Shown here: positions 32,503-57,788 of the stretch, piece by piece | Layout of the letters: every line of letters begins with the position of its first letter | Position numbering within the stretch: the stretch's first letter is position 1 | NCBI GenBank assembly: GCA_045580325.1 | Contig: JAZNNR010000005.1 | Location: forward strand, 67,504 to 131,503 | DNA: 64,000 bases | Reading direction: 5' to 3' | Origin: Eubacteriales bacterium | GTDB taxonomy: Bacteria > Bacillota > Clostridia > Oscillospirales > CAG-272 | Position numbers and translations under genes: made by a program | Notes under the pieces: generated by a model | Database searches by the model: none | The model's input: the letters and a program-made list of their open reading frames with translations, nothing else | What the model was told of the DNA's origin: nothing

Positions 32503-33096
32503 TTACGGATTTCCAACGTTGATTTGCAGATCAACCGTTTCTCCGTCCCTGATATAATAGGTGCTGTCCGTGCCGCTTTCAACGTAATCGGCGTAGTAAG
32601 GGGAGGTGCCCCACGTGGAAGTGAAGCTTACCTTAGTGGTTTCGGTAACCTCTATTGTAAATGTGATAGAGTAAGTCTTTCCGTCCTGTGCGCTTACGTC
32701 TTTTCCAAGCTGCTGAGTATAATACTGAACGTTTCCGCCGTTTTCTGCGGAAATTACGCAGAATCCTGTCGAGGCACTGCCGAGCTTTTCGATCGTAACA
32801 ACGTATTTTCCTGCCTCAAGAGTAGCCGATTTGGTTACACTGTTGACGTCGCTTATATCTACCGACAGATCTGTGTCTAAATTCTTTATCGAAAGCAGGG
32901 TTTCAAAATTTCCGGACTGAATAACAGTAGAAGAGGACGCGACACCGTGACCAAAATATGCATATGCGGAGATACCCATAGCAAATAGGCAAGCGATTAT
33001 TAAAATAACTGTGAGCGTCATTCTCGTAACGATTACTTTGTCAGTGATTTTTTCGTCTTTTGAAACGTGTAAAAATTCATTATACAGTTTTCTCAC
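32503..33096 (-). CDS. Small secreted protein with variant SipW-type signal peptide (class III: ..ISAYAYFGHGVASSSTVIQSGN)
   Basis: GTG 33096 lies 9 nt after AAAGGAGG. There is one N-terminal TM segment followed by the AYAYF motif. The mature part is beta-rich and T/S-rich. It is the last gene of the minus operon. Confidence 0.6.
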   Translation of the reverse strand: MRKLYNEFLHVSKDEKITDKVIVTRMTLTVILIIACLFAMGISAYAYFGHGVASSSTVIQSGNFETLLSIKNLDTDLSVDISDVNSVTKSATLEAGKYVVTIEKLGSASTGFCVISAENGGNVQYYTQQLGKDVSAQDGKTYSITFTIEVTETTKVSFTSTWGTSPYYADYVESGTDSTYYIRDGETVDLQINVGNP

Positions 33097-33139
33097 TTTG
33101 CCCGGCCTCCTTTCCTAACCTTGATGTTTTTACCGTGTT

Positions 33140-57200: not shown

Positions 57201-57788
57201 GATCCTTACCTCATCTCCAGCGGCGCGGACCTTAAGTGGCTTGCAGATCAGGTTGGCGGCCGTAACAACCACTTCAAGATGACCAATAATATTGATCTGA
57301 ATGGTTATGGGCTGACAATTGGCGCAGTCACTGGTTGGAGTTCGGACCGCTTTGAGGGTGTCTTTGACGGTAATGGTTACTCAATTTTAAATCTTAAGAT
57401 TGATGACACCACATCAACAGGAGGAGTCGCCTTGTTCCCACTTGTTTATCTAGGCACTATTAAGAATCTTACCGTATACGGCACAGTCAACGCTTCCGCT
57501 GAAAATGTTGGCGGTATCGTTGGTTGGAGTCACCGAGGAATCATAGAAAACTGCGTAAGCTACGTTGACGTAACATCCACGGGTCTTCGTACAGGCGGTG
57601 TGGTTGGATGGATCAATAATGCATCTACCGCTACTGGGGCAAAAATCAATAATTGCGTCAACTATGGTTCTGTTAACGGTGCTAGTATCGCTGGCGGTAT
57701 TGCAGGTGAGGCAGGCGTTACTGTTACAAACAGTATGAACTACGGCACCGTTACAGGAGTAACTGTTGGCGATATCTTTGGTAAATAA
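51207..57788 (+). CDS. 2,193-aa giant secreted protein, paralog of the upstream giant over the first ~870 aa; C-terminal part has a possible lectin-like module, two BspA-type LRR blocks and GLUG repeats
   Basis: MKTKKSLLASSIALLLCFAMLLGSTFAWFTDVVTSSGNKIQSG. Motifs: ENWEPGYTDVTILMVENLGTLALKW, EEAGNEYQN..IRIVATQ, ADQLAAFSAIVGGM and FKGTFDGCGHIISDFYQNTWE. C-terminal GLUG-type repeats: FEGVFDGNGYSILNL, GGIVGW, GGVVGW, GGIAGE. Confidence 0.85.
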   Translation: MKTKKSLLASSIALLLCFAMLLGSTFAWFTDVVTSSGNKIQSGSLKLDLKVLTEVEATDGTTYYEWVSIKNDRSPLFTYENWEPGYTDVTILMVENLGTLALKWEARFASDKPLSALADVIDVYVKPGVTSYPANRSDLEANGWNNVGCLKDFVNKLSETTYGYLDGIGSGGTTSATLGIALKMREEAGNEYQNLTLGEFDIRIVATQAMKEDDSFGPDYDEDAQWPVFKGSVSASAPVTNNNGTLASDTTVSSTDGKISATLPAGVTLNNGTDKVTLSVSEKTESEAGILAAPGVAMSPVDVHIEGVAEGNTTPIPVTIQALLPAGLNAGNYKLYHVEDGNTIEMTLRAAGQTPAHNTFDYDPATGDVTLYLASFSEVMVQADMENKWQGGMDFSWYEYSLDGEIFKISNADQLAAFSAIVGGMKYDFEGNLLPEYTPNYAADSFEGKIVTLTGDIFIGDTDKYAENGDASANGFMFYPIGYYNTTYSYQKKDKIDVSSGFKRFKGTFDGCGHIISDFYQNTWEAFGDYNDGYSGTPNHNRDGFGLFGNVLGSRDGEEYTGGIIKNLTVNNFSSDGEFTTTGAIAAYADGALFENISITNCNPRVYNIGNGGIVGCVGWYAETAGLLTTFKNVTVDNSNKITALWGSWDVACGGIVGQYYPTSGQSAHNYPVNAGMHFENCHSSAVIDVYNDVCANYQYYAYRYSGLLIGSVRENVEEDGHSYPDMTGITASGCTVHFGDWNDYYYCEIVANSLASYTHDHQMSRLTQVKSIDVENMKYLPLGETNSAENWVNIPTSGWAHYVVVKDYNETTGKYTHGDGHGFADCYHFNNGNVHTHESAGTETVNGVPGILKEDKQLIYREFNNLVTGYGWGVTSKGVGDLDGVENLDDIIENEGESYDKFVQKSHDANLTSNNTYRFGEFFDAISNNPTVSILSPTVTISANNVTAEDKVTVEITRNKDNWENSTIVFRGAGTITLTIQDYYFCNPTTTTLQFEVHTSFLDHTVSPLPINDDFSHENSNTQENRWFETSGESAKYYISAEASNSNSDKAKYFYVETDVTIHGVLDKDSVAKIGFISGTNFRDSGDDSESYRASMFYLETPAYRYEYSSDSSGNNMGTGTKHERTTWNDFKVAEQHNNYNTIYSAPAISLTDATADTALGSSISKGVTFKIALLRDGDTYYFFINGQQAFTYKIDSTSELYEGIDAATNIGFFHDNVKATFSNYKVIRSDISAPTDGVPGHTVTDIVSVKDQRGYIEFTSSDPFTLGTQINGKHWNGKIYYTTSTVNDSTWSNWAEWDGKPITAVKNGDKYVIRLSGDGNTYITGYEKVGGVDQCGFGWTLTGDDDVYCSGNIMTLLDHAKVQRGETPEMGYAAFWQLFKNCTNLASAPTLPATVLTQRCYREMFQGCTSLEEAPVLPATTMWHECYNYMFNGCTSLVDAPDLPATELYLSCYSNMFSNCTSLETVSELPATELAAYCYYAMFMGCPNLKEIPYLPATQIAEHCYNYMFYNKDRDDANAGTGIKISEKYDAEKGYTTEYRIPVTNADIKADYSNYETKKDANGNDIVIDGKTQYNFDYRTYPVSQMFTYTDGKYFAVNDKLFTETHPAYGLGYLPGDIKVVGRNFVEFTSDSEITITSSNGGKTWTNKIEYSTDGKTWTEWTGTTIRANTIYMRGTGNRKLTASDQDTLAGWTITGENIFCNGNIEYLLDYKTVMAGGHPQMDNFCFKALFNGCTGLVKAPELPSMTVAYHGYHSMFKGCTSLVTAPKLPATKLATTCYGAMFADCTSLVNAPALPATTLAGWCYYGMFQGCTSLVNAPELPATTLAEDCYGYMFYGCTSLVNAPEQIPATTLTIRGCEYMFYGCTSLETVPELPATTLADRCYFWMFAGCTKLKEVPYLPATTLANHCYNHMFFGVGITYSNTQKDSCMTKYAFPSISDYVTTYYSFGQMFDGASPLDYVLANSLYIKTGITIVGAPVWNGNDVSTSLQGAGTEADPYLISSGADLKWLADQVGGRNNHFKMTNNIDLNGYGLTIGAVTGWSSDRFEGVFDGNGYSILNLKIDDTTSTGGVALFPLVYLGTIKNLTVYGTVNASAENVGGIVGWSHRGIIENCVSYVDVTSTGLRTGGVVGWINNASTATGAKINNCVNYGSVNGASIAGGIAGEAGVTVTNSMNYGTVTGVTVGDIFGK
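55320..55750 (+). repeat. BspA-type leucine-rich repeat block 1 (~6 units of ~25 aa / 75 nt)
   Basis: F(K/Q/N)(N/G)CT(N/S)L..AP.LPAT.(L/M)...CY..MF, repeated: FKNCTNLASAPTLPATVLTQRCYREMF / QGCTSLEEAPVLPATTMWHECYNYMF / NGCTSLVDAPDLPATELYLSCYSNMF and so on. Confidence 0.8.
56380..56960 (+). repeat. BspA-type leucine-rich repeat block 2 (~8 units)
   Basis: FNGCTGLVKAPELPSMTVAYHGYHSMF / KGCTSLVTAPKLPATKLATTCYGAMF / ADCTSLVNAPALPATTLAGWCYYGMF / QGCTSLVNAPELPATTLAEDCYGYMF and so on. Confidence 0.8.

Follow-up and report, generated by a model that had tools for sequence, protein, structure and literature searches.

The DNA stretch analysed here, called the window, comprises 64,000 nucleotides from a Eubacteriales bacterium (assembly GCA_045580325.1, contig JAZNNR010000005.1, positions 67,504 to 131,503). 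Twelve open reading frames (ORFs) at window positions 32503-57788 form two divergent operons; the minus-strand operon has eight genes (from 40473 to 32503) and the plus-strand operon has four (41021-57788). They encode three SipW-like signal peptidases and nine putative substrates. Profiles, predicted fold, signal type and SipW linkage assign the locus to the TasA superfamily. A TasA-like N-terminal domain, here called the handle, appears in small proteins as well as in large fusion proteins, two of which (giants 1 and 2) exceed 2,000 amino acids (aa). The genes and the region between the operons are:

32503-33096, minus strand: 197-aa protein, SipW-type signal-like N-terminus (SAYA/YFGHGVASSSTVIQSGNFE) and a different, variable domain; candidate cap or initiator
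33140-33787, minus strand: 215-aa stand-alone EPGY-class TasA-like subunit, candidate fibre subunit; hmmsearch E 1e-44, hhalign 99.9% over the full length
33810-34478, minus strand: 222-aa TasA-like LPXTG protein, candidate wall-anchored base or socket; Sec signal (VLA/EGG) and C-terminal PPQTG sorting signal
34495-35109, minus strand: BsaA-class small subunit, 204-aa ORF; TIGR04090 partial match, hhalign 98% to the N-domain of the 486-aa protein
35214-37349, minus strand: 711-aa fusion of an EPGY handle (aa 1-226, 36672-37349) and a payload of ~485 aa; hmmsearch E 4e-62, TIGR04088 24.8 bits
37546-39006, minus strand: 486-aa fusion of a BsaA-class N-domain and a C-terminal extension of ~250 aa, variable allele; TIGR04088 and TIGR04090 matches
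39093-39821, minus strand: canonical SipW-type signal peptidase I, 242-aa ORF; TIGR02228 101.7 bits, motifs SPSMEP, THR and GDTNDTED
39763-40473, minus strand: divergent SipW-like peptidase, 236 aa; TIGR02228 67.7 bits, motifs SDSM and THK
40474-41020, no strand: divergent intergenic region, 547 bp, 32.2% GC against 44.4% for the locus
41021-41857, plus strand: divergent SipW-like peptidase, 278 aa, first gene of the plus-strand operon; TIGR02228 51.3 bits, NF046067 87 bits, motifs TDSM and THM
41931-44189, plus strand: 752-aa fusion of an EPGY handle, an immunoglobulin (Ig)-like domain (aa ~230-378) and a further C-terminal part; PF12389 22.9 bits, hmmsearch E 2e-81
44481-51053, plus strand: giant 1, 2,190 aa, with handle, Ig-like domain, GLUG-like part, variable region, three Listeria-Bacteroides repeats and Hint domain
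51207-57788, plus strand: giant 2, 2,193 aa, paralogue of giant 1 over aa 1-990 with a different C-terminal half

These coordinates and the low GC content of the spacer bear out the original prediction, made from the letters alone, of twelve genes in two operons around an AT-rich region of 547 bp. The length of ~2,190 aa claimed there for two proteins was also correct. Genes within the operons are separated by 16-291 bp, and near-consensus promoter-like sites lie on both strands of the spacer. Related loci, labelled L001-L019, came from a scan of one genome per species; L016-L019 are conspecific contigs (e.g., GCA_965131775.1).

The prediction of three S26B peptidases agreed with matches to TIGR02228 (NCBIfam, archaeal-type signal peptidase I, cut-off 51.85 bits), with the 278-aa enzyme marginally under the cut-off. 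All three carry S-x-S-M-type and T-H-(R/K/M) motifs. In the Bacillus SipW equivalog NF046067 they reached 82-87 bits, far under the 190-bit cut-off; by these scores the locus peptidases are of the same type as Bacillus SipW and not its orthologues. Alignment separated a canonical class (212/242 aa) from a class formed by the mutually similar 236-aa and 278-aa peptidases. The latter two have (S/T)DSM and TH(K/M) motifs and a threonine in place of the first aspartate of GDxN. All three peptidases end with a second transmembrane segment, followed by a long charged coiled-coil tail. The likeliest start of the canonical enzyme is M31 (39731), which has a good ribosome-binding site and gives a protein of 212 aa. 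Orthologues of the canonical enzyme were found in L002, L012 and L013 and an orthologue of the 236-aa enzyme in L002, a goat-caecum Oscillospiraceae metagenome-assembled genome (MAG) that has both classes together. The two classes may act on separate substrate classes or have a role beyond proteolysis.

A regular-expression scan for the N-terminal motif [STAG][STLAI][FLYW]A[WYF][FYL][TSGN] yielded exactly eight ORFs in the window. All of them lie in the locus, as the original prediction of eight SipW-type signals had it, and a basic and hydrophobic N-terminus precedes the motif in each. Five substrates (both giants and the 486-aa, 711-aa and 752-aa proteins) matched the SipW-cognate signal family TIGR04088 above its cut-off of 19 bits, and the 215-aa protein narrowly missed it with 18.1 bits.

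Behind these signals, the substrates are assigned to two domain classes. The EPGY handle is predicted in the 215-aa, 711-aa and 752-aa proteins and both giants, and a BsaA-like domain in the 204-aa and 486-aa proteins. A hidden Markov model (HMM) of the handle was derived from alignment A2, which comprises the N-domain of giant 1 and its homologues (59 sequences). In hmmsearch it matched both giants and the 752-aa, 711-aa and 215-aa proteins with E values of 1e-44 to 1e-94. The Pfam family PF12389 (Peptidase_M73, TasA/camelysin family, cut-off 22.5 bits) was matched above its cut-off by the 752-aa protein (22.9 bits) and giant 1 (25.0 bits). The 711-aa protein stayed under it with 18.6 bits and the remaining substrates had no direct match; most database homologues of the handle carry a precomputed PF12389 assignment. 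A direct phmmer search of the PDB with the handle and the 215-aa protein found nothing relevant. A nine-sequence handle profile placed TasA first in the PDB, but with E 0.44.

The AlphaFold2 model of the giant 1 handle (residues 28-230) had a mean predicted local distance difference test (pLDDT) of 86. For this model, Foldseek ranked 7ueg (AbpA of the archaeal bundling pilus) and 8aur (TasA fibre) highest among 350,542 PDB chains, each with probability 1.0; Fim and Pap subunits were among the weaker structural matches. A TasA-like fold had been named among the checks of the original prediction, and TasA or archaeal bundling pilin structures came out on top for this handle as well as for the 222-aa LPXTG protein. 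Together with the profiles and signals, this agrees with the proposed SipW/TasA-superfamily locus. The first 20 residues of the mature handle are its most conserved part, with a mean top-residue frequency of 0.79 against 0.55 elsewhere, and Asn12 is invariant. In the monomer model, confidence is lowest over these 20 residues (pLDDT 45-76). High conservation and low folding confidence in the same N-terminal segment are as expected of a donor strand. In TasA fibres, each jelly-roll is completed by the N-terminal strand of the adjoining subunit (PMC9674648).

The 215-aa protein shares 52-69% identity with its orthologues in other loci. For the weak members of the family, single-sequence hhalign was uninformative and small alignments from syntenic loci were used instead. 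By profile and structure comparison, eight of the nine substrates are assigned TasA-superfamily domains, and the 197-aa protein has only the N-terminal signal and strand segment in common with them. The original prediction had described PG(Y/D) and GNEYQ..A(T/V)Q strands in all nine proteins. This held for eight; PG(D/Y) and GNEYQ..ATQ are both absent from the 197-aa protein.

In the BsaA-like class, the 204-aa ORF has a probable TTG start at 35058, which gives a protein of 187 aa (ribosome-binding site; same call on other contigs). The N-domain of the 486-aa protein aligned with the handle and with the 215-aa protein at hhalign probabilities of 92-97%. TIGR04090 was matched by 11/11 BsaA-class members from syntenic loci (best E 1.5e-10). 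The scores were far under the 60-bit cut-off, at 27.8-28.3 bits for the 204-aa protein and 21.8 bits for the 486-aa protein, and by this curated threshold the proteins are placed as distant relatives of the BsaA family and not as members. Asn37, Glu50 and Lys73 are invariant in the 11 BsaA-class sequences (alignment A5; window 34495-35058, 38263-38943). They lie near N35, E56 and K74 of BsaA, a comparison made by position number, with BsaA itself outside A5. For Clostridium perfringens BsaA, it was experimentally shown that donor-strand exchange is followed by an N35-K74 isopeptide lock catalysed by E56 (PMC11580942). A PDB profile search of the class gave a signal-peptide match only.

The 222-aa protein carries a sortase sorting signal, in agreement with the wall anchor proposed earlier. 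Its tail from residue 181 reads PPQTG-DDSRAG-LYFLLAICCIFMIIVLLVW-RKKDRK, with a hydrophobic stretch of 19 residues, and one homologue is annotated as 'LPXTG cell wall anchor domain-containing protein'. The best Foldseek match of its AlphaFold2 model was monomeric TasA (5of2, E 2e-4, probability 1.0), and 7ueg ranked fourth. Against the A2 profile, hhalign covered 163 columns with 64% probability. It is the best-conserved component of the locus: there were 3,530 database matches, and the best 120 clusters were all at least 70% identical.

The 197-aa protein matched the handle profile with an hhalign probability of 96% over 76 columns, which comprise the signal, the donor-strand-like YFGHGVASSSTVIQSGNFE and ~40 further residues. 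Its orthologues have 238-583 aa with variable tails. It is a candidate for a cap or initiator that contributes a donor strand only, by analogy with TapA, which supplies a TasA-like strand and promotes assembly (PMC10151520).

The large fusions combine an N-terminal domain with long C-terminal parts. An Ig-like domain of ~150 aa is common to the 752-aa protein and the giants (BLASTP against giant 1). The giants share 47% identity over residues 1-990 and are unrelated past that. Their common part consists of the handle, the Ig-like domain and a Cys/His-rich region of ~480 aa with GLUG-like repeats, for which neither Pfam nor the PDB (phmmer) gave a match. Five parts of the giants were delimited:

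44481-45170, plus strand: handle of giant 1, SipW-type signal with predicted cleavage after A28, then TasA-like jelly-roll
49491-50132, plus strand: three Listeria-Bacteroides (Flg_new) repeats, giant 1 aa 1671-1884; PF09479 E 9e-44
50376-51050, plus strand: Hint-like domain from Cys1966 and conserved extension of ~85 aa, giant 1 aa 1966-2190; TIGR01445, PF14890
55347-56951, plus strand: two BspA-type leucine-rich repeat blocks, giant 2 aa ~1381-1510 and ~1733-1915; PF13306 E 3e-12, internal repeat
57189-57785, plus strand: GLUG-motif region at the C-terminus of giant 2; PF07581 E 0.003, under the cut-off, resembles giant 1 aa 493-548

Otherwise, Pfam scans of the giant segments and of the tails of the 486-aa, 711-aa and 752-aa proteins gave almost nothing, and a PDB phmmer search of the 711-aa tail found nothing. 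The 'beta-helix' label that had been given to the mid-size proteins was not verified, as Pfam and PDB sequence searches of the C-terminal parts were empty. Giant 1 is the conserved giant, with orthologues of 1,780-1,982 aa in L001, L002, L003 and L013.

Relatives of the locus are found in uncultured gut Clostridia, in records titled Oscillospiraceae, Eubacteriales, Candidatus Howiella and Candidatus Allocopromorpha. Several related loci hold proteins of 1,780-1,982 aa that begin with the handle. A cassette of four genes, BsaA-like, LPXTG, 215-like and 197-like, keeps its order in L002, L003, L008 and L012-L019. Upstream of the cassette are handle fusions of differing size, plus SipW genes where the contig reaches. 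The survey of Clostridia for synteny suggested with the original prediction thus found the cassette in many gut Clostridia MAGs; the architecture is not as rare as had been implied.

The handle itself is widespread. Its homologues are at most 57% identical, one fragment excepted. The A2 HMM search gave 10,447 representative clusters (50% identity level) at E ≤1e-3 and 4,525 at E ≤1e-30. In all of the 150 best representatives of the 10,447, the handle occupies residues ~3-220. Lengths were taken from this representative search; the homologue listing gave only proteins up to ~400 aa. Of 140 newly listed proteins among the best 150, 139 have at least 400 aa, with a median of 684 aa and a maximum of 2,323 aa. 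In this subfamily, a handle with a long tail is thus the norm. The idea of the N-domain as a reusable module is supported by its N-terminal position and its fusion to varied tails.

Comparison of the window with the conspecific contigs L016-L019 showed ~98% DNA identity over the left flank and most of the locus, with two segments unaligned. At window 37432-39011, the conspecifics carry a 242-aa allele instead of the 486-aa gene; it shares 48% N-domain identity and is without the extension. L016 differs at window 35204-36681: its version of the 711-aa protein keeps the handle (aa 1-226) at 99% identity but has, in place of the 485-aa tail, an unrelated one of equal length. A constant handle with a replaced tail indicates payload exchange at the handle/payload junction.

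Two further loci showed irregularities. The 752-aa gene appears in L017 (L017:11521-13050) as a 509-aa ORF without handle, with 97% identity to window residues 208-678. A pseudogene, phase variation or a mistake in the assembly could account for it. In L012 (L012:11671-19518), the cassette is directly followed by two phage-type integrases, a DUF3800 protein and a restriction-enzyme-like helicase; this locus may lie beside or on a mobile element.

The C-terminal Hint domain of giant 1 was absent from the original prediction, as were the BsaA-like subclass, the atypical 197-aa protein and payload swapping between strains. Its scores are under the cut-offs, with E 4e-4 and 21.2 versus 24.5 bits for TIGR01445 and E 0.0018 and 18.5 versus 35.8 bits for PF14890. 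The top PDB matches of the Hint profile were Hint folds such as DnaB mini-inteins, at weak E values (0.025-0.07). Two relatives have a precomputed PF01079 match. The domain ends the cassette-linked giant in L001, L002, L003, L008 and L013, with 40-63% identity. The six orthologues (L002:14657-15340, L013:8612-9304, L001:14669-15358, L003:7396-8070, L008:3640-4332 and the window) share an invariant first cysteine, invariant T and D columns, and invariant LADG, LLVW, FSDG, HGF and GH.F blocks. The ~85-aa extension behind the Hint core is conserved across the six loci. A search of the 140 best newly listed handle representatives with the Hint HMM gave 0 matches, and the domain is regarded as a feature of the cassette-linked giant only.

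No extein lies behind the Hint domain of giant 1, and it is therefore likened to a Hedgehog- or bacterial intein-like (BIL)-type autoprocessing module on a surface adhesin. It probably forms a thioester between P1965 and C1966 and then cleaves itself off. The new C-terminus of giant 1 may be hydrolysed or, as in Hedgehog, transferred to a nucleophile.

The observed family membership, fold, motifs, anchor signal, synteny, N-terminal handle position and payload swapping are consistent with a SipW-dependent surface assembly of the TasA/BsaA superfamily in an uncultured, Oscillospiraceae-like bacterium of the gut Clostridia; this assembly would be one that mounts exchangeable adhesin-like payloads via an N-terminal handle on a wall-anchored structure. 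This working model is favoured with moderate confidence. Eight proteins would be exported by Sec. The locus peptidases would cut after ..(S/T)x(F/L/Y)A and expose an N-terminal strand, e.g., WFTDxVTSxxNxIxSGxL; each peptidase class may have a substrate class of its own. The exposed strand would enter the jelly-roll of another subunit by donor-strand exchange. The small subunits of the EPGY class (215 aa) and the BsaA class (187/204 aa) would form a shaft, with a possible covalent lock between BsaA-class subunits through an Asn-Lys isopeptide bond. The 222-aa TasA-like protein, fixed to peptidoglycan by a sortase, would serve as base or socket. The 486-aa, 711-aa and 752-aa proteins and the two giants would plug in their variable, possibly adhesive C-terminal modules via the N-terminal handle. 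These modules would include GLUG-like regions, Listeria-Bacteroides repeats and BspA leucine-rich repeats. The 197-aa protein, with a donor strand and no acceptor domain, may cap or initiate the fibre, as is thought for TapA and AbpB. More than one arrangement fits the base end, long fibres or short stalks, and giants at the tip or along the shaft.

Several points weigh against this working model. Donor-strand exchange among the locus paralogues is read from N-terminal conservation and from the confidence of monomer models, and the Foldseek template modelling scores are modest (~0.42). The model of the 222-aa protein has moderate confidence (pLDDT 71.5), and its N-terminal strands fold back on their own domain; the protein may thus be self-complemented. 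No sortase gene was found in the window, where no ORF has the TLxTC motif; a cognate sortase gene may lie in another part of the genome. In the EPGY handles of the giants, the Asn/Glu/Lys set is incomplete at the BsaA-equivalent columns, where Glu and Lys are not kept, so that any attachment there would be non-covalent. An adhesin role of the payloads is suggested by domain types, and most of their length matches no family. For co-expression of the locus genes, the basis is the short intergenic gaps.

A released biofilm-matrix system would also account for parts of the locus: the small subunits would form free TasA-like fibres, and the large proteins would be independent of them, sharing the SipW signal and the N-terminal jelly-roll without co-assembly. 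TasA and BsaA fibres are indeed matrix components (PMC9674648, PMC7395162), the C. perfringens sipW operon includes a large protein, BsaC, that does not polymerise, and co-assembly is a prediction here. This alternative is nevertheless considered unlikely. Among proteins with unrelated tails, conservation of the handle peaks in the donor-strand segment, and the handle is always strictly N-terminal. A very conserved TasA-like protein with an LPXTG anchor is always in the cassette, and the giants have no other means of retention, as domain and motif scans found no other wall anchor in either of them. The conservation of socket protein and donor strands, the two most conserved elements, could also point to a one-to-one device in which each handle donates its strand to the 222-aa wall socket or to a short stalk, an anchor for exchangeable adhesins and not a fibre. 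From strain to strain the payload changes and the handle does not, and handle fusions far outnumber stand-alone subunits among the close representatives (139/140 with at least 400 aa). However, the cassette always keeps two small stand-alone subunits (215-like and 187-like) of the type that polymerises in TasA and BsaA, and the LPXTG model looks self-complemented. Such a plug and socket is judged rather improbable.

The name Peptidase_M73 of the matching Pfam family would make the N-domains camelysin-type metalloproteases and the locus a set of secreted proteases. This reading was rejected and has next to no probability, since none of the 12 locus proteins has an HExxH motif. The structural matches are fibre subunits, and the peptidase assignment of CalY is itself seen as a likely misidentification (PMC11580942). 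In polymorphic toxin systems, toxin modules come after Hint domains (PMC4436062), and ~85 residues lie behind the Hint core of giant 1, which could then be polymorphic-toxin-like, with a pre-toxin Hint that frees a small C-terminal effector. But the extension is conserved and not polymorphic across six loci, and no immunity-like gene is next to it; the next gene encodes giant 2 or a BsaA-like subunit. A toxin is therefore very improbable. As an extension of the SipW-dependent assembly, a two-ended covalent display is conceivable and speculative: the sortase-anchored socket and an isopeptide-locked, BsaA-like stalk would carry the interchangeable giants by their donor-strand handle, and giant 1 would use its Hint domain, with the adduct-recognition-like extension, to convert its own C-terminus into a thioester. 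It would then ligate this end to a lipid, wall or protein nucleophile, or shed the adhesin. If true, this would be a surface-attachment route not described for Gram-positive adhesins.

TasA-type fibres are known chiefly as simple biofilm scaffolds of Bacillus and, lately, of C. perfringens and archaea. The Bacillus systems (B. subtilis tapA-sipW-tasA, B. cereus sipW-tasA-calY; PDB 5of1, 8aur) resemble the locus in an archaeal-type peptidase encoded next to its substrates, in the TIGR04088 signal class and in a jelly-roll subunit with a conserved N-terminal strand. In B. subtilis TapA, a domain of another type bears the donor-like strand, and the 197-aa protein may be built likewise. Unlike the three-gene Bacillus systems, the locus has 12 genes with three peptidases of two classes. 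Most of its members bear C-terminal payloads of 250-2,000 aa, and one TasA-like subunit is predicted to be sortase-anchored. Identity to TasA is too low for direct detection, as the empty phmmer search and the profile E value of 0.44 illustrate. The C. perfringens sipW-bsaA-bsaB-bsaC operon shares a Clostridia host, a leading sipW, several TasA-like paralogues and a large non-fibre protein. TIGR04090 matches, together with invariant Asn, Glu and Lys at similar positions, further liken the 204-aa protein and the 486-aa N-domain to BsaA. In contrast to that system, scores in the window are at most 28 bits against a cut-off of 60, no type IV pilus genes were seen nearby, and the EPGY handle class, the LPXTG subunit and the Hint domain are additional. 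As the scores stay under the equivalog and subfamily cut-offs, neither the Bacillus operons nor the C. perfringens operon are considered orthologous to the locus.

Archaeal bundling pili and tafi (AbpA/AbpB, TafA) provide the best structural match of the handle (7ueg). AbpB was proposed as a fibre starter that carries distal adhesin domains (PMC9245690), and this idea of a first strand with distal adhesin domains follows the same logic as handle plus payload. AbpA and AbpB differ from the locus in having neither a dedicated SipW nor a sortase anchor, and their tip proteins are comparatively small. LPXTG and S-layer homology anchors in bacterial loci are described in the AbpX preprint. Chaperone-usher pili (FimA/FimH, PapA/PapG) are alike in the proposed principle: donor-strand exchange, a tip adhesin with a pilin-like domain and a terminator or anchor subunit. 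They show no homology in the tests made; the locus has no chaperone or usher, and its handle is N-terminal with the adhesin C-terminal. Hedgehog/Hog and BIL Hint domains share with the C-terminal module of giant 1 the invariant first cysteine and a conserved histidine block, and the extension of giant 1 sits where the sterol- or adduct-recognition region of Hedgehog/Hog lies. The giant 1 matches differ in being under curated cut-offs, and autoprocessing of giant 1 is a prediction.

The heteropolymer idea of the original prediction is not new. Heteropolymers and LPXTG neighbours had already been proposed for the BsaA/TasA family in a 2025 preprint: the genes are often beside LPXTG proteins, sortases and signal peptidases, and several paralogues per operon suggest heteropolymers (PMC11580942). 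The papers searched gave no account of an N-terminal handle fused to tails of 400-2,300 aa as a large family, of a TasA-like subunit that is itself sortase-anchored and the most conserved part, of a combination with a C-terminal Hint domain, or of payload swapping between strains. The kind of system is thus known, and the modular version is real, widespread and uncharacterised, with a plausible mechanism. Abundant uncultured gut Clostridia appear to use the TasA fold as a modular handle for very large, strain-variable adhesins on a wall-anchored base. If true, this would explain the surface retention of thousands of 'hypothetical' giant proteins of gut Firmicutes that have no wall anchors of their own. 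Studies of heteromeric donor-strand assembly in Gram-positive bacteria would also gain a tractable system, and surface display a natural scaffold of the plug-in kind. Hedgehog-like autoprocessing of a bacterial adhesin can, moreover, be tested on the C-terminal Hint domain.

The ends of the locus and its non-coding parts were also inspected. The terminator scan gave one element:

32425-32466, no strand: hairpin with a 19-bp stem, terminator-like both ways; closes the minus-strand operon

The flank that holds this hairpin is common to the conspecific contigs. A riboswitch or small RNA was rejected: no Rfam family was matched in the 547-bp spacer or in the rest of the locus, which ruled out, for instance, a c-di-GMP riboswitch. 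Just past the stop of giant 2, a weak LhrC-like Rfam match (window 57843-57939, plus strand) reached 37 bits against a cut-off of 110 bits; most likely it reflects only the terminator structure of the plus-strand operon.

The flanking genes are unrelated to the locus: an AraC-type regulator, a sugar isomerase, ComEC, a 2,404-aa GH94 protein and a Schlafen-type helicase. The 2,404-aa protein (window 13505-20719, minus strand) has GH94 catalytic, supersandwich and glucoamylase-like domains and resembles a cyclic beta-1,2-glucan synthase or phosphorylase. The gene of the competence channel ComEC adjoins it (20772-23030, minus strand) and is likewise unrelated to the locus. Directly downstream of the locus, a 709-aa helicase of the Schlafen group-3 type (window 58747-60876, plus strand; PF09848, E 2e-65) may be defence-related.

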